From contig JAUWGE010000001.1 in the NCBI GenBank assembly GCA_030606565.1, positions 4,478 through 68,477 of the forward strand: a stretch of DNA of 64,000 bases, read 5' to 3'. Positions 25,947-49,478 of the stretch are shown here, in pieces. Both the position numbers and the translations under genes were made by a program. The notes under the pieces were generated by a model. That model did no database searches, was not told where the DNA came from, and worked only from the letters and a program-made list of their open reading frames with translations. The first letter of the stretch is position 1. Each line of letters begins with the position of its first letter. Source of the stretch: Candidatus Bipolaricaulota bacterium. GTDB taxonomy: Bacteria > Bipolaricaulota > Bipolaricaulia > UBA7950 > UBA9294.

Positions 25947-26179
25947 CTAAAATCAGCCGTCAGTGATCAGCCATCAGCAGTCAGGAAAGAAGGAGCGATC
26001 AGGGAAAAGAAGTAATGAGTGATCAGGGGAAAAGACAGTCAGTAATCAGCCAAAAGAAGAAAAGGCGCTTTTAGCTGACGACTGAGTGCTGACGGCTTCT
26101 TCTTCGTGACGTTACGCTTGACGCACCGGTCTGCTATCCTTAGAATAGAAATTACAAACGTAATATAAATAGTATTCCT

Positions 26180-26437
26180 ATGAAGACAAAGACGATAACT
26201 GTGAAACTAGAAGACGAACTCGCGAACGCTGTAGAACGCATGCAGAAAGAGGCGGGTTTCCACAGCAAGAGCGAGATGATTCGCGAAGGGCTGAGAGTGT
26301 TAATCGCACGGGAACGCCACCGGAAACTAACAGAGAACCTCACGCGCTATCTGAGAGATCGCGAAGCCCTCGACGAAGCAGCCCAGGAGGTTGAAGAGCG
26401 AATACCGTCCACCGAAGAGGCGCTGAAACGGTCGTAG
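26180..26437 (+). CDS. Ribbon-helix-helix (CopG/ParD-like) antitoxin
   Basis: The RHH N-terminus is TITVKLEDELANAVERMQKEAGFHSKSEMIREGLRVLI. The gene lies immediately upstream of the MazF-like frame. Confidence 0.6.
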   Translation: MKTKTITVKLEDELANAVERMQKEAGFHSKSEMIREGLRVLIARERHRKLTENLTRYLRDREALDEAAQEVEERIPSTEEALKRS

Positions 26438-26439
26438 CC

Positions 26440-26785
26440 ATGATCCAGCGCGGTGCGGTGTTCAACGTCAACTTTTCAGTCCAAGGCGTGGCCATGAAGG
26501 AGTAAGGCCGGCGATTGTCATACAAGCCGACCTTTACTGCCCTCTCTCAACCCTTCTCGTCATTCCCACTTCAACACACGCCCGCAAGGAGATTGACTTT
26601 CATGTCCCGGTGACCGTTCAAGGGATTCGCACCTATGCGTTGATCGAGCAGCTCACCGCGGTGGACAAAACAAGGCGGATAAAGAGCGAAAACTATCTGG
26701 GGAGGATCTCACCGAAAGAGATGGAGAAGATTGATCGGATGCTCAAGGTTTTCATCGGCCTCGATTCAAAACTGTCGTTCCTCTA
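26440..26785 (+). pseudogene. mazF: MazF/PemK-family toxin disrupted by a frameshift near 26495-26505
   Basis: Frame A reads MIQRGAVFNVNFSVQGVAMKE* (stop at ~26503). A second frame continues GHEGVRPAIVIQADLY...VIPTSTHARKEIDFHVPVTVQGIRTYALIEQLTAVDKTRRIKSENYLGRISPKEMEKIDRMLKVFIGL, which is a typical MazF. Confidence 0.6.
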
Positions 26786-26958
26786 GCTGAGAGCGATCGG
26801 TAATCAGCGATCAGCTTAAGGCCTCTAAGGCTGACAGTTGATAGATGGTAGCTATTTCCCCTGCCTTTGATTTGCTTTAGGCTGATAGCTGAAAGCCAGT
26901 AGAGTTCGCCGCCCACCGGGCGGGACGTTCTTCACGGTTCTGGTAAACTTGTGAGGCA

Positions 26959-26967
26959 GTGTATAAT
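26959..26967 (+). promoter_or_regulatory. Extended -10 promoter element TGTATAAT upstream of TA pair
   Basis: TGTATAAT is a perfect extended -10 element. It lies ~23 nt upstream of the GGAGGTG RBS and ATG 26990. Confidence 0.3.
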
Positions 26968-26989
26968 TGGAGAGATGGAGGTGTATACG

Positions 26990-27208
26990 ATGACGAAACT
27001 TCTCAAAGAAGCGTTTACCGAAGCTTCCAAGCTCCCCGAGAGTGAGCAGAATGTGTTTGCGGAATGGTTGCTAGAGGAGCTAGCATCCGAGCATCGTTGG
27101 GAAAAAGCCTTTGCTGGATCTCACGAAGCGCTTACACATTTGGCAGATGAAGCACTTGCCGAGCAGCGCGACGGCCGCACTCAAGTGCTTAAACCGCATA
27201 AACTGTGA
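26990..27208 (+). CDS. Putative antitoxin (addiction-module component)
   Basis: MTKLLKEAFTEASKLPESEQNVFAEWLLEEL... is an acidic helical small protein. It is translationally coupled (overlap) to the downstream toxin-like gene. It is homologous in architecture to 39933..40133. Confidence 0.5.
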   Translation: MTKLLKEAFTEASKLPESEQNVFAEWLLEELASEHRWEKAFAGSHEALTHLADEALAEQRDGRTQVLKPHKL

Positions 27209-27474
27209 CATCCTACACGACGGGATGCTTCCGGAAGGCGTTTTCCCAGTTGCCCCGGGATGTTCAGCAGAACGCCAGAGAGTCTTACAAGCTATTCGCA
27301 CAAAACGCGTATCATCCCAGTTTACGTCTTAAGCAGGTGCATCCGACGAAGCCCATCTACTCAGTTCGAGTCACTAGTAACTACCGAGCAGTAGGAGTCC
27401 ACGATGGAGACAATATGATCTGGTTTTGGATCGGTTCTCATGCTGATTATGATAAACTACTCTCTAGGCTTTAG
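27205..27474 (+). CDS. RelE/ParE-superfamily toxin-like protein (paralog of 39672..39932)
   Basis: ...FRKAFSQLPRDVQQNARESYKLFAQNAYHPSLRLKQVHPTKPIYSVRVTSNYRAVGVHDGDNMIWFWIGSHADYDKL shares the pattern F..LP..VQ...NP.HPSL..K.V....SVR....RA....D..W.WIG.H..Y with 39672..39932. Confidence 0.55.
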   Translation: MTSYTTGCFRKAFSQLPRDVQQNARESYKLFAQNAYHPSLRLKQVHPTKPIYSVRVTSNYRAVGVHDGDNMIWFWIGSHADYDKLLSRL

Positions 27475-27592
27475 GCTAGCTATCAGCCGTCAGGGAGGAA
27501 CAAACCGTCAGCTACCAGCTTTCACCATCAAGCAGAAGCGGCTTTTCTTTTAGCTGAGCGCTAAATGCTGACGGCTGATTGCTGGTTGCTAC

Positions 27593-28189
27593 TCAAAACA
27601 CCTCTTCTAAATCGATGGAAAGCCCAGCAAGAAGGGGGGATTTAAGAGGTGCCTTTTCTTTGCAGGCATAAAGGGCAACCTGGGAAAAGCCCTGCTCCTG
27701 CAGCTTTAACACCTCAACCGTCTTTGTGGCAGGATCGACCAGCCAGTACTCCTTGACACCATGGCGGGCATAGAGGGCCTTTTTGTAGGTGCGGTCGCGC
27801 TTTGCTGTTGCCTCAGAGAGAATCTCGATCACCAGACCAGGGGCACCGCGGATCCCTTCCTCGGCGATAATATCGGCCTGTTCCTTTCCGACAAACAAGA
27901 TATCAGGCTGGAGGACGGTGTCTTCGCTGAGGATGACGTCAAGAGGAGCATCGTAAACAAAACCTAAGTCGTGCTGTTTGACGAACCCGCGCAAAATAAA
28001 CTCCAGGTTTCCTGAGATGCGTTGGTGATACTCATTCGGTGATGGAACCATGACTAACTCCCCCTCAAAAAGCTCATAGCGCTCCCGCTCGGACTCCGGT
28101 GCGTTTCGATAGTCTTCGTAGGTAAACTTGATTCTAGTAGCCGGCTTTTCCATCGGATCCACCTCCATCGAGTATTCTAGAACGTCCAT
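27593..28189 (-). CDS. Uma2-family (DUF820) putative restriction-endonuclease-like protein
   Basis: ...YELFEGELVMVPSPNEYHQRISGNLEFILRGFVKQHDLGFVYDAPLDVIL...PDILFV... is the Uma2 pattern. Confidence 0.75.
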   Translation of the reverse strand: MDVLEYSMEVDPMEKPATRIKFTYEDYRNAPESERERYELFEGELVMVPSPNEYHQRISGNLEFILRGFVKQHDLGFVYDAPLDVILSEDTVLQPDILFVGKEQADIIAEEGIRGAPGLVIEILSEATAKRDRTYKKALYARHGVKEYWLVDPATKTVEVLKLQEQGFSQVALYACKEKAPLKSPLLAGLSIDLEEVF

Positions 28190-28325
28190 GGTCCAAAGTC
28201 CAAAAAGCGGTGATGAGTTAAGGGTGATGAGAGAAGAAGAGCGGGATTAAGGAGTATGGATTAGGGATTCAAGGGGCGAAGGCAGCGATGAGGGATAGGT
28301 GAATCGTGGATGGTAGACTGTGAAT

Positions 28326-28403
28326 GGTGAATGGTCCAGAGTCCACAGTCCAGAGCCGGTGATAAATTGTGAATTGCGAATGATGGAGAGCGGGTGTGTG
28401 CTG
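28326..28403. repeat. 78-bp interspersed repeat built of 7-nt periodic units (copy A)
   Basis: GTGAATG GTCCAGA GTCCACA GTCCAGA GCCGGTG ATAAATT GTGAATT GCGAATG ATGGAGA GCGGGTG ... It is ~94% identical to 32310..32387. Confidence 0.7.
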
Positions 28404-28455
28404 AAAGCTGACGGCTGATAGCTGAAATGCTGATAGCTTGACCGTTGATTGCTGG

Positions 28456-28866
28456 TCATAGCAGGAAGCTTCTCGTCCGAAGCGGTACAAAACGACAGAT
28501 CTCCTCAAAGTGGTTGTCCGCATGCCAGAGCAGAAGATCCTTGGCAAGGGCAGCCTGGGCGATCAGTAGATCCGGAAGGGGGATAGGAAGCCCCTCTTTG
28601 CGCAGCGTATACCCCAGGCGAGCCGCCTCTTTCCAGACACCTTCGTCGATGGGAATATCTGGAACTACACCGAGGTGTTCCAGCAGTTTGTCAAAACTTT
28701 TCTCATCCCTTGAACCGATCAGGATCTCCGCTCGTACAACCCAACACGAGAAGACGCGCCCTTTGGTAAGCGCCTTCTTCACCGAGGCCTTTAGTTCCTC
28801 CCGCCCCTCCGGTCGGAGATAATGGACCCAAACCGAGGTATCGATAAACACGGGCTCTTCGCCCAT
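28456..28866 (-). CDS. vapC: PIN-domain toxin VapC
   Basis: MGEEPVFIDTSVWVHYLR...D...IAQAAL is the PIN pattern. The start overlaps the vapB stop. Confidence 0.75.
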   Translation of the reverse strand: MGEEPVFIDTSVWVHYLRPEGREELKASVKKALTKGRVFSCWVVRAEILIGSRDEKSFDKLLEHLGVVPDIPIDEGVWKEAARLGYTLRKEGLPIPLPDLLIAQAALAKDLLLWHADNHFEEICRFVPLRTRSFLL

Positions 28867-29102
28867 CAGATCGACTCTGCGCTGGATTCGCGCCACTCTT
28901 TGAGATCCTCCGGCGTCAGCTCAACGAGGCCTGAGCCAGCAAGTTCGGATAGCTTCTTCAGATGGCGTGCGCGCACGAACTCACGGAGCGCCACCTCGAT
29001 GGCCTCCCGTTTGGTCTTTACGTTAGCCAATCGCCTGCTCTCTTCCAGAAGTTCAGGATCCACCGAAACCGAAAGTCTACTTATGGTGCACCTCCAAAAC
29101 AC
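28866..29102 (-). CDS. vapB: VapB-family antitoxin
   Basis: ...LSVSVDPELLEESRRLANVKTKREAIEVALREFVRARHLKKL... resembles Rv0623-like VapB antitoxins. The exact start is unclear, with no ATG near the RBS. Confidence 0.6.
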   Translation of the reverse strand: MFWRCTISRLSVSVDPELLEESRRLANVKTKREAIEVALREFVRARHLKKLSELAGSGLVELTPEDLKEWRESSAESI

Positions 29103-29397
29103 CTAGAAGATACACCATTCATCGAGGGTTAACAAGCCAGTGTCAGTATGGTAGGGATTGTGGATAGTTGATCGCTGGTGGAGGGAGAAGGCTAATACGT
29201 TTCTCTCTCTTCCCGCGTCCCCGTGTCTTCCCCTTCCCTTCTCCGTGTTCTCTCCGTCCTCTGCGGCGAGGCGTATGAAAAAGGGCTCTTCGCTATTCGG
29301 CCTGCCTGCAGCAGGCAGGTCCGGTTCGGAGGGGGGAGGGACCGGGAACTTAACTGGTCCTTCCTACCCTATCTGGGTCTTCGCATCAACAAAAACG

Positions 29398-29421
29398 GCC
29401 CCGGGGCCCTTCCGGAGGAAT
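29398..29421 (-). terminator. Terminator-like palindrome GGCCCCGGGGCC followed by T-run (minus strand)
   Basis: A perfect 12-bp palindrome with TTTTT follows on the minus strand. It lies just downstream of the relE stop. A similar motif follows the two beta-helix genes. Confidence 0.45.
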
Positions 29422-29449
29422 GCGGAAGATATCTGCGGTGCCTCATCTA

Positions 29450-29716
29450 CTACCGGCCCCCCAGGCGCTCCATGACCTCGTGGGATCCTATTCGACGGAG
29501 TATAATGGCCTCGCCTTCTATCTGAAAGGTGGACCGGTAGCCGCCGCCGACCTTCGCCTTCCAGATCCGCTTCCGTTTGTCGATGATCCGCGCTTCCAGA
29601 GAGGGATGCCGAGGAGCCTCCAGCAGAAAGGCAAGCTGCTTATCAAACCGCTTTTGGATTTGGAGGGACAGGCTCTGGTAATCGCGGATGAAGGGCTTCG
29701 TGAAAACCGGCTTCAT
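29450..29716 (-). CDS. RelE/ParE-family toxin
   Basis: MKPVFTKPFIRDYQSL...GGGYRSTFQIEGEAIILRRIGSHE matches the RelE pattern. Confidence 0.7.
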   Translation of the reverse strand: MKPVFTKPFIRDYQSLSLQIQKRFDKQLAFLLEAPRHPSLEARIIDKRKRIWKAKVGGGYRSTFQIEGEAIILRRIGSHEVMERLGGR

Positions 29717-29997
29717 GCCCTGGTCTTTTTTAGAGCTTCAATCGCCTCTTGGGTTGTCGCAAAGGGTCCGATCAACTCACCCTTCTTAATTGCCTCATCC
29801 GCCTCCCGCTCCTTCTTTTGCCATTCCTTTGACCAAAACCAGACATCTTCCTTATCAACCAGCCTCTTGGGAATGATGACGATCTCGCCCCCTTGGGCTT
29901 CGACCTCGACGTAGTCGCCAACCTCCAAGCCCACCTGCCGACGTACCTTCTCGGGGATGGTCACTTGGTATTTGGTCCGCACTTTGACTACCGGCAT
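29713..29997 (-). CDS. AbrB/MazE/SpoVT-family antitoxin
   Basis: MPVVKVRTKYQVTIPEKVRRQVGLEVGDYVEVEAQGGEIVIIPKR is a swapped-hairpin AbrB-type fold. It overlaps relE (ATGA). Confidence 0.65.
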   Translation of the reverse strand: MPVVKVRTKYQVTIPEKVRRQVGLEVGDYVEVEAQGGEIVIIPKRLVDKEDVWFWSKEWQKKEREADEAIKKGELIGPFATTQEAIEALKKTRA

Positions 29998-30341
29998 CGT
30001 TCTCCCTCCTCTATCAAGAGTTTGAAAGCAATGCAGTATTGCAAACTGATTATAATGCTGTCCATCTCTAACTGCAAAGGTCCGCAAGAGTCGAGAGTTG
30101 AGTGAAGCCCATTCGTTGAGTTCGTTGAGTTTGATCACCCACTACCTACTACCCACCATTCTCATCTGTCCAAAGGTCAAGGTCCAACGTCCAAGGTTGG
30201 TGGTAAATGGTGAATGGTAAGTAGTGAGTAGTGAATGGAGAACGCTGACCGCTGATTGCTCCAAGGAAAACAGCACGGGGTCTTAGCAGCCGGGATGATA
30301 TTAAGTGTCAAGTGTGGGCATGACCCCGGAGCGCGGTGAAC

Positions 30342-30626
30342 TTACCCCCGATACGCCTCACGCCGAGGCTTGCAGGAATAGAGCACCACGTTCTTTTCGA
30401 GGACATCGTAGCGAATCCGGTAATCCCCCGAGGCAATTCTCCACTGCCCTTCCCCCTTCTTCATTCCCTTGAGCTTCTTGATGTTGTGCCGACCGCTCCG
30501 GGCGTAGGGATCTTCACGGAGAACTTCTACCATGGCCTCAACATGGGAGATCGCTCCGGGCGTTCGTCTGGCCAGACTCTTGTAGTCGCGGTCGAAGTGA
30601 GGGGTACTGAGGATGCGGTAGGGCAT
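30342..30626 (-). CDS. RelE/ParE-family toxin
   Basis: ...KKLKGMKKGEGQWRIASGDYRIRYDVLEKNVVLYSCKPRREAYRG is the canonical RelE C-terminus. Confidence 0.7.
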   Translation of the reverse strand: MPYRILSTPHFDRDYKSLARRTPGAISHVEAMVEVLREDPYARSGRHNIKKLKGMKKGEGQWRIASGDYRIRYDVLEKNVVLYSCKPRREAYRG

Positions 30627-30636
30627 GGGCAGGCTG

Positions 30637-30930
30637 TCACTTCGGCCGCTTGGTCGTCGTGCGCACCTCGGCTAAGACTTTCTCCACGGAACGGGTCTTG
30701 CCAGTCTGATACTCCCGGTAGCCCTGCCGAATCTGTGCCTTCAAAGACTCATCGTGCAGATCCAGGTAGTCCTCCAGCTCGTCGGCGTCGAGGATACCGA
30801 GCACCGGGAGCCCATCCCGCTCTACGATAATGTATTCCTTGCCCACTTTCACCCGGCGGATCAGCTCACCGAAGTGGGTCTTGGCCTCGGTCGCGGAGAC
30901 GCGGGTCACTTTGGGAGCTCGTGTGGCCAT
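30637..30930 (-). CDS. Phd/YefM-family antitoxin
   Basis: ...VSATEAKTHFGELIRRVKVGKEYIIVERDGLPVLGILDADELEDY matches Phd/YefM. Confidence 0.75.
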   Translation of the reverse strand: MATRAPKVTRVSATEAKTHFGELIRRVKVGKEYIIVERDGLPVLGILDADELEDYLDLHDESLKAQIRQGYREYQTGKTRSVEKVLAEVRTTTKRPK

Positions 30931-30946
30931 CTCCCCTCCTCAATGG

Positions 30947-31150
30947 TCAACGTTGGTCAATCAGGAGGATAGCCGAAAGAAGAGCGGAAAGCAAGGCCTT
31001 ACCGGGGAGACCTACCCGGTCCTTGACCTCATCCGAGCGCTCGATCATCCCTGCATCCAGAGCGGTCATCACGTCTACCCCGCGGGCGCGTAAAGCCTGT
31101 ACCAGGTCTTTATCCATGGCATCTTCATCTATATAGAGACGGATTGTCAC
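30947..31150 (-). CDS. DUF5615-family PIN-like protein (toxin-like partner of DUF433)
   Basis: MTIRLYIDEDAMDKDLVQALRARGVDVMTALDAGMIERSDE... matches the DUF5615 pattern. Confidence 0.6.
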   Translation of the reverse strand: MTIRLYIDEDAMDKDLVQALRARGVDVMTALDAGMIERSDEVKDRVGLPGKALLSALLSAILLIDQR

Positions 31151-31449
31151 GAATCTTTTTCTTTCTGGGAGAGAAAGTGCTCATGCTTCAATCGCTCAGC
31201 CTCCGCTTCCTCGGCAGCGATGTCGGCTTCGATCTCTTCTCGATTGGCGTGATAATAGGCCAAGGCGGCGTGGACTTGAGCTAGGGATAAGTGGCCTATC
31301 CGATCTGCAATTTCTTCCGGGCTCAACCCTAGCTTATACCAGCCTACGATGCGCCGTACCGTCACGCCTGTCCCCGCAATCCGCGGACGCCCCCCACGCA
31401 CCTCCGGCGTCCGAACGATGAGCGTCCCAACCTCAACTACATTTGCCAT
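31147..31449 (-). CDS. DUF433-family antitoxin-like protein
   Basis: ...VRGGRPRIAGTGVTVRRIVGWYKLGLSPEEIADRIGHLSLAQVHAALAYY matches the DUF433 core. It overlaps the downstream DUF5615 gene. Confidence 0.7.
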   Translation of the reverse strand: MANVVEVGTLIVRTPEVRGGRPRIAGTGVTVRRIVGWYKLGLSPEEIADRIGHLSLAQVHAALAYYHANREEIEADIAAEEAEAERLKHEHFLSQKEKDS

Positions 31450-31816
31450 GATTGATCGCCCCTCACGATACTGTTGTCCGTTTTGTAGAGATGTGATCTA
31501 TATTTAGTCTAACGCATGTGCTCGACCATTGTCAGCACCTCGTCTCTTTCCGGGTTTGGATGCTAGATGTGAGGATATTAGGTGTTAGGCGCGGTGGGTG
31601 ACGAATGGTGAAAGCGGCCGCAGATGGTGGGTAGTTTGTGGTTCGTAGTTTGAAGTTCAAAGTTCCTGGTTTGCTGACTTGCCGACTCTTGACTCAATCT
31701 CTCAATGGCTCTCGACTCTACCGTGCCCGGAGAGTGTCAAGTGTAGGCCTGACCCCGGCGTTCTGGTAAGTAGTAGGTGGAAAAGCTAGGAGCTGAAAGC
31801 TGACGGCTGATAGGCG

Positions 31817-32233
31817 TCACGCCAGCTTTGTCTTTATCCTTTCTATCTCGCTTTTGTTCTTCTCTACATCGCCTTCTATCCGCCCGATCCACGCCGTTGT
31901 AGCAACTCTCTCCTGATCGATACGGGTGAGAATTGTCATCATCTTGTCCTGACCGCGCGCCATCTCGTCCATGCGTTCGTTGAACTCCGTCCTGGTCACC
32001 ATTTTTTTTATCTCTTCACGGTTGTTAATGACTTGAATGGTGAGGTTATCGATCTTCTTGCTGTTCGTATCGATCTTCACGCTGTTCGTATCGATCTTCT
32101 TGCTGTTCGTATCGATCTTATCAGTGAGTTTCTGTTCCACCTGATCGATCCTGCCAGTGAGTTTCTGTTCCACCCTGTCGAGGTCTTTTTTGGTCGCTGG
32201 TTCGTCACGGCGGTCGTTCATAGACACCTCCAC
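31817..32233 (-). CDS. Coiled-coil protein with 7-aa tandem repeats (IDTNSKK)x3 encoded by 21-nt DNA repeats
   Basis: ...KIDTNSKKIDTNSVKIDTNSKKIDNL... The DNA carries three tandem copies of cttgctgttcgtatcgatctt. Confidence 0.45.
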   Translation of the reverse strand: MEVSMNDRRDEPATKKDLDRVEQKLTGRIDQVEQKLTDKIDTNSKKIDTNSVKIDTNSKKIDNLTIQVINNREEIKKMVTRTEFNERMDEMARGQDKMMTILTRIDQERVATTAWIGRIEGDVEKNKSEIERIKTKLA

Positions 32234-32309
32234 TTGATAGTTATAGCGACTGCCCTCAGAGCTGTCAACCTCCGCTGGCGGCGAATGGTGGGTAGTGAGT
32301 GGTGGGGGG

Positions 32310-32387: not shown

Positions 32388-32616
32388 CCGCTGATCGCTT
32401 CTCTTAGCTGTCAGCTCCTGGCGATCTTAGCGTCTTAGCGAGAGAAAGGCATGTGCTTCTCGCGAAGGCCTGTCTGCCTCGCCGGCACAGGCAGGCCTGT
32501 CTGCCGTCGTATTCTGACAGGCAGGCGCGGAGACACGGGGAGGAGGAGACGCGCAACAGGCAAGTCAGAGCAGTCAAACGTCAAGAAACAAGCATCTTAC
32601 CGCAGAGGGCGCCGCG

Positions 32617-32820
32617 GAATTGAGAGATCGGGAGATCGTATAATTGATAGATTGAATCATCGGGAGATCGTATAATTGATAGATTGAATCATCGGGAGAT
32701 TGAGAGATTGGGGAGTTAAATCACTCAATTGCTAAATCACTCAATCTCTCACTTACTCACTCGCTCAATCATTCAATCAATCTCTCACTCGCTCAATCCG
32801 AAGAAGTCTGGTAAGATATC
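32617..32820. repeat. Composite element: tandem ~32-bp (8-nt periodic) GATCGGGAGATCGTATAATTGATAGATTGAAT units plus complementary AATCACTCAATC arm (copy 1 of 3)
   Basis: The left arm carries about 2.5 tandem units. The right arm is built of 8-mers such as AATCACTC, AATCTCTC and ACTCGCTC, which are partly the reverse complement of the left arm. It ends in ctcaatccgaagaagtctggtaagatatc. Confidence 0.65.
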
Positions 32821-32888
32821 GGTTGGAATTGGCTTTGGAATCTTGCTACACTGTTTTAGAGTGAACTTTTGCAGGAGGGGAATATCGC

Positions 32889-33116
32889 ATGAGCAAGGAG
32901 CAAGACCGAACGGAAGTAAAGATAGGGATCTCTGTTGAAGAGCTAATATCTGCTATCAACGAACTGGATGAAGAGCACAGGGAGTTCCTGATCGAGAATC
33001 TCCTGGCTGCCACGAATCCTGATTACCTTCACAGCATCGAAGAGGCGCGAGTGAATTATAGGCAGGGCCAGATCCTTCCCCATAATAAGGTATTTGGCAA
33101 GGCGGAGAAGAATTAG
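32889..33116 (+). CDS. Putative antitoxin partner of RelE/ParE toxin
   Basis: A small acidic protein lying 10 nt upstream of the relE/parE-like gene. ...ISVEELISAINELDEEHREFLIENLL... Confidence 0.45.
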   Translation: MSKEQDRTEVKIGISVEELISAINELDEEHREFLIENLLAATNPDYLHSIEEARVNYRQGQILPHNKVFGKAEKN

Positions 33117-33125
33117 GGGCAAGCT

Positions 33126-33380
33126 TTGAAATACGAGCTGTTATATACCAAGCGTGCGGCAAGGGACATCTCCAGATTGGATCAGGTAGCCAAGGAGCGA
33201 CTAAGGAAAACCTTGGAGAGGTATGCACAATCTCCTTTCGACTACGCGAAGAAGATGGTGGATCCGGCGCTGGGTACTTATCGCTTCCGAATCGGAGAGT
33301 ATAGAGTCATCTTCGATGTGGAAGGTAATAAGATCGTTGTCTTGCGAGTAGGCCATCGTCGCGAGATATACCGCGGATGA
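33126..33380 (+). CDS. RelE/ParE-family toxin
   Basis: MKYELLYTKRAARDISRLDQ...GTYRFRIGEYRVIFDVEGNKIVVLRVGHRREIYRG is the canonical pattern. Confidence 0.75.
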   Translation: MKYELLYTKRAARDISRLDQVAKERLRKTLERYAQSPFDYAKKMVDPALGTYRFRIGEYRVIFDVEGNKIVVLRVGHRREIYRG

Positions 33381-33737
33381 GAGCAGCTTCCCGTTCAAGA
33401 TCGAGTATTGTGGCATCAGGTTTAACGAGGGATTCTGGGCGGACATCTTCATCGAAGCAAGGGATACTTCCCAAGAGGACACGTCCCAAGGCTATCTTGT
33501 CTGCTGTGCTGGCACAGGCAGGGAACTCAAATCGGTAAAAGCGGTGAACAATGCCGCAAGAAGCAACTGCTTACGTACCTGCCTGTCTGCGTCCGAAGGA
33601 CAGGCAGGCGCAAAGACCGCAAAGAGCTGTCAGCTATCAGCCGTCAGCGATCAGCTTGGACTACCAACCCAGTTTGTTTCTTACTCTGCCCTTCACTCAC
33701 CACTCTTCACTGCTTTAGCGCCTTTGCGAGAGGCACA

Positions 33738-34010
33738 AGCTTTTTCTCTCGCCCGTTCGTTGCACTCACTCAAGCCGCAAAGGTCGCGGAGGAATTGAGA
33801 GATCGGAAGATTGAATGATCAGGAGATCGGATGATTGATAGATTGGATGATCGGGAGATCGTATAATTGATAGATTGAATCATCGGGGGATTGAGAGATT
33901 TAGAAGCTAAAATTTAATCAATCGCTCAATCATTCAATCGCTCAATCATTCAATCACTCAATCTCTCACTTACTCACTCATTCACTCACTCACTCATTCA
34001 ATCACTCAAT
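33738..34010. repeat. Composite 8-mer tandem-array element (copy 2 of 3)
   Basis: It shares the leader ...cgttcgttgcactcactcaagccgcaaaggtcgcggaggaattgagagatcggaagattgaatgatc... with the copy at 38597. It carries about 3 tandem units and a complementary CTCAATCATTCAATC arm. Confidence 0.65.
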
Positions 34011-34013
34011 AAA

Positions 34014-34052
34014 AACGGCCCCGGGGGGTTAGCCCCAGGGCCGGGGGAATTG
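34014..34052 (-). terminator. Rho-independent terminator of the beta-helix gene (minus strand)
   Basis: A GGCCCCGGGG...CCCCAGGGCC hairpin is followed by TTTTT on the minus strand, directly after the stop. A near-identical structure follows 40605..43943. Confidence 0.5.
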
Positions 34053-34061
34053 CGAATTAGG

Positions 34062-37000
34062 TTATCTCAGGATCGCGAGCTTCTTTACCTCGCTCACGAC
34101 CCACTCACCATTGACCAGCGCGTACAGCTTGTAGAGATACACCCCGTTGGCGAGGTACTCGACGTCGCTGTTCTCGGTGTGCCAGTCAAGGCTCGCGCCA
34201 GGCTCCTCGGCCTCGTAGACCAGTCGGCCGGCAAGGTCGAAGATCTGGACCTTGATCGCCTCGACGTACGCTGCCGCGCCCTTCACCGCAAACGTGGTGG
34301 TGTGGACATCGATGATCGGGTTCGGACTAACTGTAAATGTCAGCACCTCTAGGATTTCACGCAACGAGAGCGTGGGCGGTGGCGGCGGATTCCCCATGGT
34401 CCCTGTACAAGCGCGCCACACCACCTCGCCACATGCAGATCCCGTAGTTATGCCAGATCCGGAGGGTGCGAAATGCAGGATGACCCCACTCGTGAGCGCC
34501 TTCAACCAATAGCCCGTCCAGGGGTCGAGAACTGCACCTGAGCTACCATCGATAGCTTCGTACTCCCCGGTTAGTACGTTGTATGTCCAAAGACGACCCT
34601 CAATCCAGCCAGCAGCCACCGCGTCAGCGAGCGATTTCACTTCACCGTCCTTGGACAAGGTGATCGAGTCACCGCTACCCCACACAACGGGGTAAGGAAC
34701 GCCGATCATGTGCCAGCCCGCTCGCTCCAATAGCAGCGCTTGCTCTCCCACCAGGGAGTCACCTTGGAAGTGAAGCTCCATCGGCTCGCCAAGACAGAGC
34801 CAATACCCGTGCATACAGCAGATGGCGGTGAGCGTCCCTGCCTGACAACTGTCATAGCACTGGCCGTTGTAGTTGAACAGACGCAGCGGATCAATGCCAG
34901 CAAAGACTACTTCCGGGGTATTGTCCTCAAGCGACAGCGGAATCGCGATCATGTGCCAGCCCGCGGACAGGTTCAACACATTCTCGGCCTCGAGGGCAGT
35001 GATCGTCACGTCATCGTAGTCGGACTTGCTAGAATGATTCGTCACTACCAATGTGATCACATACCGACCCGGCACGTCGGGAATGAAGGTTGGGTCAACC
35101 GTATTGCTGTTGGACAACATCGCCCGACTACCGGTGGGCTTCACGGCGATCGACCAATCGTAGCCGACCCAATCGCTTCTTGTATCTCGCGATTCCGACG
35201 CGGACCCATCCAACTGCACCAAGCGCCCCACGGTCACTGTTTGATCTTCTCCCGCGTCCGCCTCGGGACGCGGGCGACTCGGCCCACCGCCGCCGGCAGC
35301 CGTTCCCGATCCGAAGGCAAGGCCGGTCAGGTCGTCGAGTGTGGGTTGGGTTGTGGGAGTAACGGTTACCTCCACACAATTGGTAGCTGCATTGAACACC
35401 TGATTGGAGCATTGCTGCCAGGCCGCGCCATCCCAGTAGGAGATGATCGTACGCGCATTCGACGGGCAAAAGTCGATCGTTAAGCTGTTTACACCTGTAT
35501 CGTCATCCAAATGGACATCCCAGTAGTTGCCGGTTGCGTTTCCCAACGCCGTACCGCCGGGATTGTTGTTGTACGTGGCAGTTGTGATCGTGTGATCTCC
35601 TGCTGCGTCGATATCAATGGAGCCGATCCCGGTCACAGTATCATCAGCAGGGACCGTACCGTCACCAGAGACAGTGTTCGACGACGCCTCCCCCAACTCC
35701 GCTCCTGTCCACGGGCAGTAGTCCACGTTGGCGCTGACCTTGTCGCCAGTGCCATCAGCGTTCACCTCAGTTGTGGGATCATCGGTGCAGGGCGGGACCT
35801 CGTTTGTGCCATCAGTATCCTCTGGCCCACTGTCATCGCCCCACCAGTTGTTGGTGGCGTCAAATTGGTTTGTATCCACGTTTTCAACACCGTACCGCGT
35901 ACTGCCGGTGATATTGTTGAAATGGGCTTCGTTGCTTGCATGATGGACGAACAAGCCGACGACATTCCCCGTCAGGGTGTTTCCCTGCACGCTGACGTTA
36001 GTAGGGCTCTCGCCAGGCATCCCTCCGATAATGATCCCCGAATTCCAATACGTGTTAACACCTACAGGCTTTGAATCAGCATAGGTGAGACCCATGTCGG
36101 TGACGGTATTGTTGGTAATCGTACAATCCGACGACCATATCTGGATGCCGTTGATACCGTCGCTAACTGTGTTGCTGTCAACGGTAACGTTACCGCCAGC
36201 AGCACTAGGATTGACATTGTCTTGTACATGTATTGAAGCGTAATCCCAGTCGCCGGTGCCGTCCCCACCATAATAGTTACACTTGGTCAGGGTGTTATCA
36301 TAAACATAAGTGTATGGAGCGCCAATGACCTGGATACCCGGGTACTTGGTTCCAGAGATGATATTGCCTATCACCTGTACCCTGTCTGCTGTCCCGGTAG
36401 CGCCAGACCTTATTATGTTTATACCCTTATCCTCAGTAGCGTTAATCTCGTTATTGTAGATATAGGTGTATGGGCTGCCAAAGGTCTGGATACATGCAGC
36501 ACCCCAGGTGTTTCCGCAGTCAGATACAATGTTACCAGTTACTTCTACCCTGGTTGCTTCGCTAGTGGCAGGGCAATTTCTTACATATATGCCCTTATCT
36601 GCACAAGAGCTGACTATGCAATTTGAGACTCTACACCCTGTGACACCATTAAGGTAAAATCCATTCTCCCCATTTATCGCCTTGATCCCTTGTACTATTA
36701 CATTATTCGTGGTTATCTCGAAGCAGTTATTGGCTGATTGCGGGGCAGCATATTGCACCAATACCATCTCGGGATTTCCAACATCACCGGTGATGGTCAC
36801 CCCTTTGTTAACGACAATTGCCTGAGTAATTGTATACGTCCCCGCTGCCACATTGACTGTGCTGGCGGTGACTTCGTCCACGCCCTCCTGGATGCGCCCG
36901 GTTGCACCAGTTTGTGGGCTGTCATCATCCACGTTTAGCACGGACAAATCGCCCTGGAAACCGGGTCCGGGATCTGTGTCAGTCCCGCTGTCCAGCCAGG

Positions 37001-38009
37001 GGGTGTAGTCGACATCGGCGCTGACTTCGCCAGCTACGCCGGCTGCGGTGTTGGTGCTCCACCAGTTGCATGAGGCATCAAGGGTTGTTCCAACATCTAG
37101 GTTGTTTACTCCGTAGGCGACACTGCTATAGATGCTGTTGTAATTGATAGTATGGTCTGCATTATGAACAATCCTGACACCGTCTCTAGCACTGCCATAT
37201 ATTTCGTTATACTGAATGTTCACATCGTGAGAATTGGCAGTTCTGATGCCATCGTGGCCAACATTCTTGATTTCGTTGTACTCTACGGTGTTGTTCGAAC
37301 CTACTGAGGAGTAATTGAAAAGGATCCCTGCGCCACCTGAGTTCTCTATCAGGTTATGCTCAATTAGACTATTAGTGATATCAGCAGTCCATGAGTTCAA
37401 GCCAAGGAACATTCCACAACCACCACTAGGACCTATGTCCAGAATCCAATTATAGGACACAGTCAGATTGTCGCACTCGCAGGCGAAGATGCCAGGCGCA
37501 TTCGTTGTCACAGGCGACGCGGAAGGCGTTACGATGTTGTTCTTGATGACTACATCGTCAGCTCTATTCTCGACAATATCGTCACCAGCTTTAAGCGTGA
37601 AGCCATCAATTATAACGCCATCGGCACCATCGAAGATATAGATGGCATTGCCATGTGGGACGTTGGGTCCTTCAATGATGGACTCCGCAACACGCGTACC
37701 GTAACCAGGGGTTCCTGCATTGGCACCGCGGAGCGTTATCCCACCTTGGCTGCCATCGAATTTCAGTCCATAGTGATCCGTCGCGAATGGCCCTCCTGCC
37801 GGGGTATACGTCCCCGCCGCCACGTTGATCGTGTCGCCAGCAGCAGCGGCATCAATGGCAGCTTGTATCTTACAGTAGGGGTCGGCCTGAGTACCACTAC
37901 CAGGCCCTGGGCAGTTGTCATCATCAACATACCAATCCGCCGCCAACCCCACCGCTCCCGATACCAAAATCGTTAATGCCAGCACTCCTACAGCCATCCA
38001 CCGTTTCAT
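34062..38009 (-). CDS. Large secreted right-handed parallel beta-helix (pectate-lyase-fold) protein with C-terminal conserved cassette and sorting-type C-terminal domain
   Basis: The signal peptide is MKRWMAVGVLALTILVSGAVGLA. The N-terminal motif is DWYVDDDNCPGPGSGTQADPYCKIQAAIDAAAAGDTINVAAGTY. Many NxxxxN/IxxN beta-helix rungs follow. The C-terminus is ...VQIFDLAGRLVYEAEEPGASLDWHTENSDVEYLANGVYLYKLYALVNGEWVVSEVKKLAILR. The start is ATG 38009 after AGGAGGAGGA. Confidence 0.8.
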   Translation of the reverse strand: MKRWMAVGVLALTILVSGAVGLAADWYVDDDNCPGPGSGTQADPYCKIQAAIDAAAAGDTINVAAGTYTPAGGPFATDHYGLKFDGSQGGITLRGANAGTPGYGTRVAESIIEGPNVPHGNAIYIFDGADGVIIDGFTLKAGDDIVENRADDVVIKNNIVTPSASPVTTNAPGIFACECDNLTVSYNWILDIGPSGGCGMFLGLNSWTADITNSLIEHNLIENSGGAGILFNYSSVGSNNTVEYNEIKNVGHDGIRTANSHDVNIQYNEIYGSARDGVRIVHNADHTINYNSIYSSVAYGVNNLDVGTTLDASCNWWSTNTAAGVAGEVSADVDYTPWLDSGTDTDPGPGFQGDLSVLNVDDDSPQTGATGRIQEGVDEVTASTVNVAAGTYTITQAIVVNKGVTITGDVGNPEMVLVQYAAPQSANNCFEITTNNVIVQGIKAINGENGFYLNGVTGCRVSNCIVSSCADKGIYVRNCPATSEATRVEVTGNIVSDCGNTWGAACIQTFGSPYTYIYNNEINATEDKGINIIRSGATGTADRVQVIGNIISGTKYPGIQVIGAPYTYVYDNTLTKCNYYGGDGTGDWDYASIHVQDNVNPSAAGGNVTVDSNTVSDGINGIQIWSSDCTITNNTVTDMGLTYADSKPVGVNTYWNSGIIIGGMPGESPTNVSVQGNTLTGNVVGLFVHHASNEAHFNNITGSTRYGVENVDTNQFDATNNWWGDDSGPEDTDGTNEVPPCTDDPTTEVNADGTGDKVSANVDYCPWTGAELGEASSNTVSGDGTVPADDTVTGIGSIDIDAAGDHTITTATYNNNPGGTALGNATGNYWDVHLDDDTGVNSLTIDFCPSNARTIISYWDGAAWQQCSNQVFNAATNCVEVTVTPTTQPTLDDLTGLAFGSGTAAGGGGPSRPRPEADAGEDQTVTVGRLVQLDGSASESRDTRSDWVGYDWSIAVKPTGSRAMLSNSNTVDPTFIPDVPGRYVITLVVTNHSSKSDYDDVTITALEAENVLNLSAGWHMIAIPLSLEDNTPEVVFAGIDPLRLFNYNGQCYDSCQAGTLTAICCMHGYWLCLGEPMELHFQGDSLVGEQALLLERAGWHMIGVPYPVVWGSGDSITLSKDGEVKSLADAVAAGWIEGRLWTYNVLTGEYEAIDGSSGAVLDPWTGYWLKALTSGVILHFAPSGSGITTGSACGEVVWRACTGTMGNPPPPPTLSLREILEVLTFTVSPNPIIDVHTTTFAVKGAAAYVEAIKVQIFDLAGRLVYEAEEPGASLDWHTENSDVEYLANGVYLYKLYALVNGEWVVSEVKKLAILR

Positions 38010-38211
38010 TTCCTCCTCCTTCTCAAACAAAAGAGCTCCCTTTCGGAGCTCCTATGATCCGCTAACAAGTAAAGAACCATTCACTATCAAATCTCTACAC
38101 TTCTCCCCCGCCCTAAGAAGTAAATCACCCATCTACATCACCAGCGTCTCCTGATACCCCCTTTAGCATAACATACAATCTGCAATTATGGATTTTTTAA
38201 TCACATAACTA

Positions 38212-38262
38212 CTATATAACTCGTTACACGTATTTGTACTATATAGCTCGTTACACGTATTT
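38212..38262. promoter_or_regulatory. 23-bp AT-rich direct repeat (x2) in the promoter region of the beta-helix gene
   Basis: ctatataactcgttacacgtatttgt / ctatatagctcgttacacgtatttgt. Each copy contains the partial palindrome ACACGT. Confidence 0.35.
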
Positions 38263-38596
38263 GTCAAGTGTTTGTTGTCCGCAGAAGCCTTAACATTGAG
38301 CACCTTTGCTTAGAGAAGACCTCTCCGGCAGTATCCATCGTGTGAGCGCTGCCAAGGAACTCGTCATCTGCGGAGGAATGCTGGGGCACGTGTAAGCAGT
38401 TAGCAATCCATAGCCCATGCGAAACGCTCTCCAACAGTGATCCGCTCGACGTTGACTTCTCGCCGCCGAGCGCGCAAAGAACGCGGAGAGATTCCTGATC
38501 GCCGTCCGTGATCTCGACGATCTCCGCGGTGAGCTGGAAAGGTCGAACACTGACTGCTGATGGCTTCAAAGAAAACAGCACGGGATCTGGCGTTCT

Positions 38597-38870
38597 TCGT
38601 TTTCTCTCGCCCGCTCGTTGCACTCACTCAAGACGCAAAGATCGCTGAGGAATTGAGAGATCGGAAGATTGAATGATCGGGAGATCGGATGATTGATAGA
38701 TTGAATGATCGGGAGATCGGATGATTGATAGATTGAATGATCGGGGGATCGTATAATTGATAGATTGAATGATCGGGGGATCGTATAATTGATAGATTGA
38801 ATCATCGGGGGATTGAGAGATTGGGGAGTTAAATCACTCAATTGCTAAATCACTCAATCTCTCACTCAAT
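38597..38870. repeat. Composite 8-mer tandem-array element (copy 3 of 3; 5 tandem ~32-bp units)
   Basis: gattgaatgatcgggagatcggatgattgata is repeated 5 times with minor variants, then AATCACTCAATTGCTAAATCACTCAATCTCTCAC follows. The right-end motif ctcaatccgaagaagtctggtaagatatc recurs at 39030..39058. Confidence 0.65.
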
Positions 38871-39057
38871 TGCCCTCTCTGCGTACTCCGCATCCTCGGC
38901 GGTGGAAGCTTCTGCTTCGCAAGGAGAAGAGGCTTGTAGAACAGGTTCTGTAAAAAAGCCAAAAGCAAAGCCCCCATGATCTCTACTGATATGGAGGTGA
39001 TGAAGCCAGATCGCTTATATGGGGAAAATACTCAATCCGAAGAAGTCTGGTAAGATA

Positions 39058-39315
39058 TCAGTCCTTGAGTAGCTTAAGACGCTTTAGATCCTCTTCGCTC
39101 CACTGAGCCTGCTTGCCAATCATGCTTTGCAGGGTGCCGATCTTAAAGGTTTGACCAGGGTAGTGGAAGGTCACGGTAACTCTACGGCCATCGGCGTGTG
39201 CATAGCGATGATGTGATCCTCGTCGACGCTTGCGGCAAAACCTATCCCGCTCCAAGGCCGTGATCAATTTGCCAGCCGTAAGGCTGCGGAGTTTGCTGTA
39301 GTCGATCTCGCTCAT
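39058..39315 (-). CDS. hicA: HicA-family toxin
   Basis: ...GSHHRYAHADGRRVTVTFHYPGQTFKIGTLQSMIGKQ is the HicA/YcfA pattern. Confidence 0.75.
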   Translation of the reverse strand: MSEIDYSKLRSLTAGKLITALERDRFCRKRRRGSHHRYAHADGRRVTVTFHYPGQTFKIGTLQSMIGKQAQWSEEDLKRLKLLKD

Positions 39316-39581
39316 ATGGCGACGCTAATGGCTGGCTCATCAAGGACTTTAATCTCGCTCTCCGGTCCAGTAGGAATAGGCCTGCCTTCCTCCAAGAACT
39401 CTTTCAGGATCATCTCCAGGACTTCGTGGATGTTCTTGAGGGCTTCTTCCTTGGTTTCGCCCCAGGTTGAGGCACCTTGCGCCTCAAGGATCGGGATATG
39501 AGCACGCCAAACCGCTGCGCTCTCAGGCTCATCAGGCCAGCGATCCTCTTCAAGGACGATACGAAAGACGTAGGTCTTCAT
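39312..39581 (-). CDS. hicB: HicB-family antitoxin
   Basis: MKTYVFRIVLEEDRWPDEPESAAVWRAHIPILEAQGASTWGETKEEALKNIHEVLEMIL is the HicB/UPF0150 fold. It overlaps hicA. Confidence 0.7.
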   Translation of the reverse strand: MKTYVFRIVLEEDRWPDEPESAAVWRAHIPILEAQGASTWGETKEEALKNIHEVLEMILKEFLEEGRPIPTGPESEIKVLDEPAISVAI

Positions 39582-39671
39582 CCCTTCCTCCTCCGACTTC
39601 CCCTGCTCGAGGCTTGCCATAATGTGAAGATACGGCAACAGAGTTTTCTTGTCAAGGATAGAAATGCTTTG

Positions 39672-39932
39672 TTAGCCCATTCCTTTAATCATTTGTTTGT
39701 ATTCGTTATGAGTACCAATCCAAACCCAAATGAAGTCTCCACCATCCTCAACCGCAAGGGCCCTATGATTAATCCCAGCTCGAACTGACCAAAATTTACT
39801 TACTTTCTTGAAATGGAGGGAGGGATGCAAAGGGTTCGCCTTGAGCAGCTCGAAGTTTCTCTTTGATACCTTTTGAACAGGGGCAGGAAGACTCTCAAAG
39901 CATGTCCAGAACCGGCTTGTTGTTCTATGCAT
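39672..39932 (-). CDS. RelE/ParE-superfamily toxin-like protein (paralog of 27205..27474)
   Basis: ...FESLPAPVQKVSKRNFELLKANPLHPSLHFKKVSKFWSVRAGINHRALAVEDGGDFIWVWIGTHNEYKQ. Confidence 0.55.
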   Translation of the reverse strand: MHRTTSRFWTCFESLPAPVQKVSKRNFELLKANPLHPSLHFKKVSKFWSVRAGINHRALAVEDGGDFIWVWIGTHNEYKQMIKGMG

Positions 39933-40133
39933 TTAGAGTTTCTTTAGCCTTCCCTTCGCTTTTTCATCACTGGCTTCCGTGATCAGAAAGTCCAATTTCC
40001 CTGATTCTGAGTCTATCTCAATCTGTCTATCCCATTTTTCCTGATCCCTTTCAGAGAACCACTGCCTCAACTGCTCATATTCCTTTTCCGGGAGAGATTC
40101 AATTGAACATAAAATTTCCTCTACTTTTGGCAT
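39933..40133 (-). CDS. Putative antitoxin partner
   Basis: MPKVEEILCSIESLPEKEYEQLRQWFSERDQEKWDRQIE... It is adjacent to and co-oriented with 39672..39932. Confidence 0.45.
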   Translation of the reverse strand: MPKVEEILCSIESLPEKEYEQLRQWFSERDQEKWDRQIEIDSESGKLDFLITEASDEKAKGRLKKL

Positions 40134-40550
40134 ATATAGCTCCTTTTCTATTCATCAACTCACAATGATCCGCCAGCACACCCGCTTGATAGTACGATGG
40201 GTGATCCTGTCCGTCAATACGTCTCACAGGCGGTGGACTGATTGGCGACAATTATTTGGCTCTTTCGCAGGTTGGCTGATGGTGGGAGCAAGCTTTCTTC
40301 CGGCGGCGTGGAAGCCGCCTCTGCTTCTGGTCTTTCCATCTCACCGCAGAGCAGCAGGCTCTCGCTCCCATGCCCAGCCCGGGGGACGCAGTATAACTCC
40401 GGTCTTTTCCTTCAAAGCGCTTGAACGCATGATAAACAGATAGGTACGGGTCTTGTTCTCGTGTAGCTAGCCCATTAATCAGCCAACCTGCAAAAGACCC
40501 GAAAATAAGCTGATGGCTGACGGCTAATAGCTACCAACTCCCTAACAAAG

Positions 40551-40592
40551 AAAATCCCCGACCCCGGGAGAATTCCCCAGGGCCGGGGGAAA
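40551..40592 (-). terminator. Terminator-like hairpin after the second beta-helix gene (minus strand)
   Basis: ccccgaccccggg...cccagggccggggg is preceded by AAAA on the plus strand. The region is near-identical to 34014..34060. Confidence 0.4.
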
Positions 40593-40604
40593 TTGCGAAT
40601 TAGG

Positions 40605-49381: not shown

Positions 49382-49478
49382 AAAGCCCGGTCCATGATCA
49401 GGGTTTGAATTACGCTTCTGGGAGTAGTATCATTATAATAGTATCATCACTAGATGAAGAAATTGATACTCTTGAGAG

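Follow-up and report, generated by a model that had tools for sequence, protein, structure and literature searches.

Clusters of toxin-antitoxin (TA) modules are already known from bacterial chromosomes, and the ways in which modules enter such clusters, move and decay are still debated; most of the earlier data come from cultured Proteobacteria with transposases or integrases nearby. The minimal mobile elements of Neisseria consist of alternative cassettes between conserved flanks that are exchanged by homologous recombination, with no dedicated recombinase, and this exchange relies on the conserved flanking genes and on natural transformation. The short tandemly repeated repetitive (STRR) sequences of cyanobacteria are intergenic arrays of heptamer direct repeats, and we know of no link between them and TA modules or rearrangement breakpoints. 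In Beggiatoaceae, Cyanobacteria and Bacteroidetes, intergenic TAACTGA repeats lie immediately upstream of start codons (MacGregor 2015, PMC4679880). In Photorhabdus, TA systems cluster in small spots within regions of high turnover, often with no other cargo; these clusters, to which transposases or integrases are often linked, rarely occur with defence systems and are frequently lost by deletion or toxin pseudogenisation (Belot et al., Mol Biol Evol 2026, PMC13617665). Here, we describe a TA cluster in a 14.6-kb region (25,950-40,600) of a 64-kb stretch of DNA from a Candidatus Bipolaricaulota bacterium (contig JAUWGE010000001.1); this whole stretch is called the window, and all coordinates are window positions.

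Related populations differ in the order, content and adjacency of the TA modules in this region, and we consider it likely that the region is a TA-only, high-turnover zone in a flexible part of the chromosome, with modules that have been rearranged by recombination at short intergenic repeats. An earlier note, made from the sequence alone, had described an island of at least ten modules here. The dense cluster is real and the count was slightly generous: Pfam supports nine two-gene type II TA loci at 26.18-40.13 kb, in seven of which the toxin appears intact, and these are accompanied by a solo Uma2 nuclease, a 138-aa coiled-coil gene and one 1322-aa beta-helix surface-protein gene (Table 1). 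All nine pairs are small, adjacent and co-directional, with an overlap or gap of at most 11 nt in eight and an overlap of 31 nt between VapB and VapC. Toxin families were matched above the Pfam cut-off for PemK, ParE_like-1, PIN, ParE_toxin (three genes), and HicA, and antitoxin or DNA-binding families were matched by Pfam or NCBIfam for RHH, VapB, AbrB/MazE, Phd, and DUF433; the small partners at 26990-27208, 32889-33116, and 39933-40133 matched no Pfam or NCBIfam family. By family membership, the RelE/ParE-fold, VapC PIN, HicA, and MazF proteins would be RNases or translation poisons that are neutralised by their cognate antitoxins. Orientation switches four times across the region, and sigma-70-like sites are predicted upstream of six modules, which suggests self-expressed units rather than promoterless cassettes.

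The comparative evidence comes from about 35 metagenome contigs (given L numbers below) from at least 12 cold-seep and sediment samples, including the Site-F cold seep in the South China Sea (PMC9357000) and several Joint Genome Institute (JGI) samples; the contigs were fetched by exact protein match, which biases identity upward. They carry the same modules at 92-100% nucleotide identity. Contigs that are ~100% identical to the window (L001, L027, and L028) are colinear with it, and at 92-99% identity the neighbours differ. For example, the VapBC block (29171-28408) recurs at 98% identity in L009, L021, L022, L024, and L025 with flanks that differ, the downstream neighbour being Uma2 in the window and L023, a convergent RHH-MazF pair in L021, L022, and L025, a convergent ParE_like pair in L024, and DUF433 in L009. 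Similarly, the downstream neighbour of Phd-RelE2 is AbrB-RelE in the window and L035, Uma2 in L034, and a convergent ParE_like pair in L036 and L038, and in L037 unrelated sequence follows; the 3' border of Phd-RelE2 (30240-30244) is common to L034, L036, L037, and L038, and its 5' border (31027) is seen in L034 and again as a breakpoint inside a DUF5615 gene. The exact DUF433 protein is present on nine contigs, in six of which the module starts at 31632, with at least four different upstream neighbours. AbrB-RelE sits elsewhere in L008, the block of a small open reading frame (ORF) and RelE/ParE (32792-33522) is 96-99% identical in L029-L033 with mosaic flanks in L030, and L017 and L018 are colinear with the window at the ParE_like-2 pair. 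Some modules have no counterpart in the window, i.e., DUF4926 with a 99-aa partner (L008), DUF4926 (L012 and L034), DUF4160 (L021), and an intact HEPN-MNT pair (L034).

On the 14.7-kb contig L034, the PCMT, threonine aldolase and PKD genes are ~90% identical in nucleotide sequence to 16.6-21.4 kb of the window, and by this identity the contig evidently covers the corresponding part of the chromosome of a sister population; its modules are HEPN-MNT, Uma2, Phd-RelE, DUF4926, RHH-MazF, and ParE_like, in this order, and the genes for the S8 peptidase and thioredoxin (Trx) do not lie between. The junction from VapC to MazF recurs in three assemblies from two different assemblers, L021 and L022 (European Nucleotide Archive, SPAdes-style NODE names) and L025 (Logan), L036 and L038 (two JGI samples) have one junction in common, and coverage is similar (39x and 48x) for two contigs of one sample. 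The recurrence of junctions across assemblers and the similar coverage argue, as far as short contigs allow, against chimeras and multi-copy paralogues; in addition, the rearranged contigs carry consistent single-nucleotide polymorphisms (SNPs) at 97-98% identity. A scan of a collection of species representatives with the S8 peptidase gave one distant relative, the nearest genome there; this metagenome-assembled genome (MAG), labelled 'uncultured Planctomycetota' (L002; S8 peptidase, 66% amino acid identity), has a surface-protein gene and not TA genes next to Trx. Two close metagenome contigs from a Trx scan (84-97% nucleotide identity) stop at or within Trx, i.e., at the left edge of the island, L003 ending 30 nt past the gene and L004 inside it. 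The earlier note had called for a comparison with related genomes and had named identical gene order as the outcome that would count against a variable addiction island; on these metagenome contigs, the order differs, adjacency and content vary widely, and that description of the locus stands in substance. An inference of purifying selection from nucleotide versus amino acid differences was dropped because the choice of contigs by exact protein match introduces an ascertainment bias.

Toxin erosion accompanies this turnover. The MazF gene is frameshifted, as the earlier note had recognised: compared with intact 116-aa alleles in L022 and L034, it carries indels of +2 nt and -6 nt, such that only the C-terminal part (26610-26786) is in frame and the N-terminus reads in another frame, and both lesions are present in L001, an independent Logan assembly of the same population. 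A second toxin, DUF5615, runs on in L009, L012, and L013 with '...ERSDEEHLDYATAQSRVLYSFNV', which we take to be the usual continuation of this protein, until the contigs end. The window and L008, L011, L016, L036, and L039 diverge from this continuation at codon 41, i.e., at position 31027, the 5' border of Phd-RelE as shown by L034; the Phd-RelE2 module thus landed inside the toxin gene of another TA module, leaving an orphan DUF433 antitoxin. A HEPN gene that is decayed in the window is intact in L034.

The spacers between the modules amount to 4855 nt (33% of the region) and are, as the earlier note had described, full of short repeats, most characteristically period-7 arrays. The window holds 15 such arrays (554 nt, versus ~10 nt in shuffled sequence), all of them intergenic and 11 of them in the island; the 13-mer GCTGACGGCTGAT, with up to 2 mismatches, has 19 of its 25 window matches there. 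The arrays consist of degenerate (NATCAGC)n or GCTGATN units. In gene orientation, a NATCAGC run starts a few bases past the stop codons of Trx, MazF, ParE_like-1, Uma2, VapC, and the coiled-coil gene, and ~60-70 nt past those of RelE-2 and beta-helix 2. Two inverted heptamer runs between convergent genes form a hairpin, and at co-directional junctions the heptamer run is followed by CATTCAC/CCACCCA-type and TTGGACN-type blocks and then by the next promoter. Where contigs differ in the neighbouring module, their sequences agree past the stop codon and over the first few heptamers and then diverge within the array, the length of which ranges from 2-3 to ~25 units between contigs. Heptamer arrays, which make up only 7-12% of the spacer DNA, coincide with all four mapped 3' borders of modules and with about half of the ~16 breakpoint clusters; the 5' borders at 31632, 31027, 29171, 32792, and 26117 have no common sequence. 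Heptamer arrays are present in L008 and L034 and absent from L002.

In the reading that we favour, each module would be an autonomous, self-promoted type II operon of antitoxin and toxin, and modules would pile up side by side among lineage-specific surface-protein genes, in a turnover that adds, removes, moves or erodes modules singly. Rearrangement would proceed by general recombination, either homologous or slippage-like and illegitimate, at short repeats that flank the modules, with the degenerate (NATCAGC)n arrays directly 3' of toxin stop codons as the main candidate sites; exchange between co-existing strains probably contributes. Modules may persist because they behave as selfish addiction elements, and toxin genes may decay once they are redundant or have been hit by another module. 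This reading is consistent with the chromosomal genes of the window (MutS2, RNase III, 11 tRNAs, PCMT, threonine aldolase, and transketolase) and with the finding of no recombinase among the ORFs tested.

Several points weigh against this reading. The comparison is built on short metagenome contigs, mostly of 0.5-2 kb, and for single contigs a paralogous copy elsewhere in the genome or a mis-join at a repeat could still account for a junction. The other half of the breakpoints lies off the arrays, i.e., at a terminator, at repetitive extragenic palindrome (REP)-like palindromes, at the edge of an octamer array, and inside genes. Heptamer arrays also occur 3' of non-TA genes (Trx, beta-helix 2, and PKD genes), both in the window and in L034, which makes them a lineage-wide intergenic feature rather than a TA-specific site, and they may simply mark operon ends. 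Finally, we infer toxin activity, addiction, promoter use and the recombination mechanism, as well as, from the 64-kb window, an enrichment of TA genes relative to the rest of the genome.

An alternative that we regard as unlikely is a phage-defence island, in which the TA pairs and Uma2 would be kept as abortive-infection systems and turnover would be driven by phage pressure. Several type II TA families (HicAB, MazEF, ParE/RelE-like, and HEPN-MNT) have documented anti-phage roles, and high turnover between strains is typical of defence loci; however, three toxins have decayed, which speaks against strong current selection. Among 10 proteins scanned with PADLOC, Uma2 clearly matched the candidate system PDC-S03 (E = 2e-44), but the other nine had no significant match, two marginal matches (E = 0.002-0.003) being discounted, and Pfam revealed no restriction-modification, CRISPR, CBASS (cyclic-oligonucleotide-based anti-phage signalling system), retron or similar genes in the window. 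In addition, TA clusters of Photorhabdus seldom co-locate with defence systems (PMC13617665). A defence island of several recognised anti-phage systems, as the earlier note had entertained, was rejected on the PADLOC result for Uma2 only. The modules may possibly have a phage-defence role regardless of which structural reading applies.

We give little credence to a second alternative, in which the locus would be an integron-like cassette system and the arrays would be attC-analogous sites at which a dedicated recombinase, located elsewhere and unrelated to integron integrases, moves TA modules. The 3' borders are indeed sharp and recurrent, with several contigs diverging right after '...ATCAGCGGTCAGC' (RelE2) and '...AGCTATCAGCATTT' (VapC), but the 5' borders share no sequence, and one module landed in a coding sequence, at a site without an array. 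Operon ends inside the island carry arrays much more often than those outside, and the matches to the 13-mer are concentrated there, but non-TA genes are followed by the same arrays. Movement of modules as intact units at 98% identity and the hypervariable length and composition of arrays between contigs would fit cassettes; mixed orientation and the modules' own promoters would not. As the earlier note had reported, no integrase or canonical attC site was found: integrase, transposase and other recombinase domains were absent from the 30 larger ORFs tested outside the island, and a scan of both strands for the consensus RYYYAAC...GTTRRRY, a crude test, gave 12 R''...R' spacings, none with paired arms. 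If true, this alternative would imply an integron-like shuffling platform on simple-sequence repeats that moves TA modules and perhaps other small genes. An integron or CALIN (cluster of attC sites lacking integron-integrases) in the strict sense was rejected, given no IntI in the ORFs tested, no attC site, mixed orientation and own promoters, and among the properties of integrons, variation of content and order between close relatives was found. The resemblance to a cassette array proposed in the earlier note therefore extends to this variation and stops at orientation, promoters and the lack of a common 5' site.

It is highly improbable that the locus is static and that its junctions are chimeric short-read assemblies at repeats or paralogous copies in the same genomes: spacers rich in 30-150-nt shared repeats, assemblies that break at the island edge (L003 and L004) or end within an array (L034), and a majority of contigs of <2 kb would all favour such an artefact, but the VapC-MazF junction and the junction of the two JGI samples recur independently, the 39x and 48x coverage in one sample fits a single copy, the ~100%-identity contigs are all colinear while the SNPs of the rearranged ones are consistent, on L034 the orthologous core genes adjoin another set of modules, and the usual and interrupted continuations of DUF5615 are an allelic difference and not a mis-join.

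With regard to its chromosomal setting, the region is preceded by MutS2, RNase III, a tRNA cluster, PCMT, threonine aldolase, three PKD-domain genes, an S8 peptidase, and a TlpA-like thioredoxin, and is followed by more secreted proteins, two tRNAs, and transketolase; Rfam at the gathering threshold found only tRNAs in the window. TA genes have a mean guanine-cytosine (GC) content of 52.3% (range 41-61%), compared with 56.5% for core genes (Mann-Whitney p = 0.005). The lower GC content reported in the earlier note is thus present, though weakly, and as a mark of the island it is offset by a codon usage that correlates at 0.93-0.94 with that of core and surface genes and by the right end of the window, which is equally low in GC. 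No direct repeat of a tRNA 3' fragment was found near the region, megablast of the whole island had no match in plasmids or phages, and no relatives of VapC, Uma2, and DUF433 were found in viral contigs. A prophage or island of the integrative and conjugative element type was rejected because of the lack of an integrase among the ORFs tested, of a tRNA-fragment repeat and of plasmid, phage or viral matches and because GC is only 4 points below core. Rather than a single bounded insert, the 'island' is a stretch with interspersed lineage-specific surface-protein genes, and more TA genes lie at 49-50 kb. Within this second cluster, which the earlier note had placed at 48.97-50.22 kb and described as a VapBC pair plus a decayed HEPN/MNT pair, MNT and PIN are supported by Pfam, and the HEPN remnants were recognised by eye only.

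As the earlier note had observed, the pairs at 26990-27474 and 39672-40133 are paralogous. Their toxins (ParE_like-1 and -2) are 38% identical and their partners 26%, and by these values the two pairs are old paralogues of one family; recent duplication as their origin is ruled out by the same low identities. A PDB sequence search with ParE_like-1 gave nothing, exact-protein look-ups with Uma2, ParE_like-1, ParE_like-2, and the coiled-coil protein returned no record, and 10 stop-to-stop frames in the large spacers (29.1-29.5, 33.35-33.8, 38.3-38.6, and 40.1-40.5 kb) contained no decayed genes according to Pfam. The coiled-coil gene carries in-frame tandem repeats at 32047-32174 (21 nt x3.5 at 32047-32119, and 33 nt x1.9) that encode KIDTNSK-type heptads; its homologue in L010 has 127 aa versus 138 aa and 73% nucleotide identity, and the number of repeats may differ between populations.

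Other repeats were also found. A composite element occurs three times on the same strand (32619-32800, 33742-34010, and 38600-38880), in copies that are 92-97% identical, and within the 64-kb window it is confined to the island; it comprises a conserved head of ~60 nt (TTCTCTCGCCCGYTCGTTGCACTCACTCAAG...), a 32-nt tandem repeat in 2.3-4.6 copies (AGATTGAATGATCGGGRGATCGKATAATTGAT), and a complementary 8/16-nt array (TCAATCAC)n, and can fold as a long hairpin (DNA fold z = -3.2). REP-like palindromes (CCTGCCTG...CAGGCAGG) recur in the spacers at 29300-29325, 32468-32530, 33493-33523, and 33578-33609, and the one at 33521 is the 3' border of the RelE-3 module. Two more families of short intergenic repeats are common to the window (16044-16184 and 50354-50451) and L034 (1-68, 6556-6660, and 7648-7830), at non-orthologous sites, and one of them is tandemly duplicated beside the intact MNT-HEPN of L034. 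The non-TA genes that bear heptamer arrays include PKD genes and a 309-aa ORF before tRNA-Ser. On the minus strand at 38210-38267, upstream of the beta-helix gene, two copies of a 27-nt tandem repeat (96% identical) lie over the best promoter-like site of the region (TTGACA-18-TATAGT) and resemble an operator pair.

Among the surface-protein genes, the S8 peptidase and both beta-helix proteins have a common C-terminal module of ~300 aa with a CHU_C/Por_Secre_tail-like end (22821-23700, 34062-35000, and 40605-41500). The C-terminal 300 aa of the beta-helix protein in the region are 41% identical to those of the second beta-helix protein, and the last ~75 residues and downstream terminators of the two genes have 83-87% nucleotide identity (34016-34325 versus 40559-40871); such similar gene ends could offer recombination targets on both sides of the cluster's right half. 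In the window (25310-25362), L003, and L004, the genes for Trx and the S8 peptidase diverge, and in the distant L002 (4801-5463) they are co-directional; one gene of this pair has been inverted at the cluster's left edge. Elsewhere in the window, two tRNA-Arg(GCG) genes (51502-51575 and 60096-60170; 98.6% identical) bracket 8.5 kb that encode CARDB, DUF11, and PKD surface proteins, a segment that may be a duplication-bounded or tRNA-targeted insertion, and a 1215-aa ORF (8237-11884) with no Pfam match covers the GC-richest part of the window (64-66%) and contains several 12-42-nt tandem repeats.

Table 1. Positions of TA genes, discrete units, repeat arrays, breakpoints and associated features in the window (contig L034 where indicated).
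Feature	Position	Strand	Match or remark
RHH (CopG/VapB-like) antitoxin, MazEF-type module	26180..26437	+	Pfam RHH_1, E = 5e-6
Promoter-like site before RHH-MazF module	26118-26146		
MazF/PemK toxin pseudogene	26441..26786	+	Pfam PemK_toxin on C-terminal 58 aa
Putative antitoxin, 72 aa, partner of ParE_like-1	26990..27208	+	Stop overlaps toxin start
ParE_like toxin 1	27205..27474	+	Pfam PF24732, E = 4e-13
Solo Uma2-family nuclease-fold protein	27593..28189	-	Pfam Uma2, E = 4e-36; PDB 9y1l, E = 4e-45
VapC PIN	28456-28896	-	Pfam PIN
VapB	28866-29084	-	Pfam VapB_antitoxin
VapBC discrete unit	28408..29171	-	Includes own 5' leader and first 3' heptamers
RelE/ParE toxin	29450-29716	-	Pfam ParE_toxin
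AbrB/MazE antitoxin	29713-29997	-	Pfam MazE_antitoxin, NCBIfam AbrB
Promoter-like site of AbrB-RelE module	30078-30049	-	
RelE/ParE toxin (RelE2)	30342-30626	-	Pfam
Phd antitoxin	30637-30930	-	Pfam
Phd-RelE discrete unit	30243..31027	-	Borders from contig comparison
Truncated DUF5615 toxin remnant, 67-aa ORF	30947..31150	-	41 genuine codons, then read-through; no Pfam match
DUF433 antitoxin	31147-31449	-	Pfam DUF433, E = 2e-19; PDB 2ga1
DUF433 module including leader	31147..31632	-	Up to recurrent breakpoint 31632
Coiled-coil protein, 138 aa	31817..32233	-	Only sub-threshold Pfam matches
Small antitoxin-like ORF	32889-33116	+	
RelE/ParE toxin (RelE-3)	33126-33380	+	Pfam ParE_toxin, E = 1.5e-12
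Small ORF + RelE/ParE discrete unit	32792..33522	+	
Secreted beta-helix/PKD surface protein, non-TA	34062..38030	-	Pfam; CHU_C/Por_Secre_tail-like C-terminus
HicA toxin	39058-39315	-	Pfam HicA_toxin, E = 3e-13
HicB antitoxin	39312-39581	-	Pfam HicB_lk_antitox below cut-off, E = 2.5e-4
Promoter-like site of HicAB	39655-39627	-	
ParE_like toxin 2	39672-39932	-	Pfam ParE_like below cut-off, E = 5e-4; 38% identical to ParE_like-1
66-aa partner of ParE_like-2	39933-40133	-	
Second small TA cluster	48992..50220	+	
MNT	48992-49276	+	Pfam NTP_transf_2, E = 2e-12
HEPN remnants, ~35-aa fragments	49239-49383	+	Recognised by eye only
RHH-like VapB	49479-49772	+	
PIN	49765-50220	+	Pfam PIN, E = 8e-8
(NATCAGC)n array	28398..28428		Example at module 3' border
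Further (NATCAGC)n arrays	25952-25987, 26787-26817, 27478-27493, 27547-27594, 30237-30260, 31783-31811, 33624-33657, 40509-40536		
Arrays 3' of non-TA genes	20599-20726, 44036-44063, 51264-51339		
Arrays 3' of non-TA genes, L034	6471-6518, 6797-6826		L034 positions
Non-array breakpoint, rho-independent terminator	29387-29409		
Non-array breakpoint, REP-like palindromes	33521		CCTGCCTG
Non-array breakpoint, octamer-array edge	32792		
Non-array breakpoints inside genes	27326, 31027		

These observations bring into the study of TA clusters an uncultured sediment lineage whose populations, at 90-99% identity, differ by modules that have been re-ordered, exchanged or inserted into other modules. 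Should closed genomes bear this out, the locus would provide a natural system in which to ask whether short tandem repeats alone drive cassette-like shuffling and how fast toxins are inactivated after arrival. As assemblies break at such loci, the TA content of MAGs of this lineage would be under-counted.

The region resembles the TA clusters of Photorhabdus in its co-localised TA modules, high turnover, rare company of defence systems and loss by deletion or pseudogenisation; by contrast, no transposase or integrase was found in the window, the spacers are long and contain lineage-specific heptamer and octamer arrays at which many breakpoints lie, and the host, an uncultured bacterium of sediments, is known from metagenomes alone. 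Sedentary integrons and CALINs, e.g., the Vibrio superintegron (PMC4889954, PMC13108822), are likewise arrays of small modules whose order and content differ between relatives, with self-promoted TA pairs embedded in the array and a structured repeat at the 3' ends of units. Unlike these, the window has no IntI, no attI, and no attC with an R''/R' core and paired arms, its orientation is mixed, every unit is a TA module or another self-expressed gene, and its 3' repeats are heptamers in tandem and not imperfect palindromes with a fixed architecture, and its 5' borders are heterogeneous.

The heptamer arrays themselves are comparable to the STRR and TAACTGA repeats in that they are tandem, degenerate 7-nt units, intergenic only, variable in copy number and lineage-restricted. 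They differ from both in their units, which are NATCAGC/GCTGATN plus CATTCAC- and TTGGACN-type blocks, and from the TAACTGA repeats in that they lie mostly just 3' of stop codons rather than 5' of starts; they are, moreover, concentrated around TA modules and coincide with breakpoints, a link that does not appear in the TAACTGA abstract (PMC4679880). Finally, the region shares with the minimal mobile elements of Neisseria the presence of alternative cassettes at one chromosomal site with no dedicated recombinase, and is set apart from them by its candidate crossover sites, which are short intergenic repeats inside the cluster.

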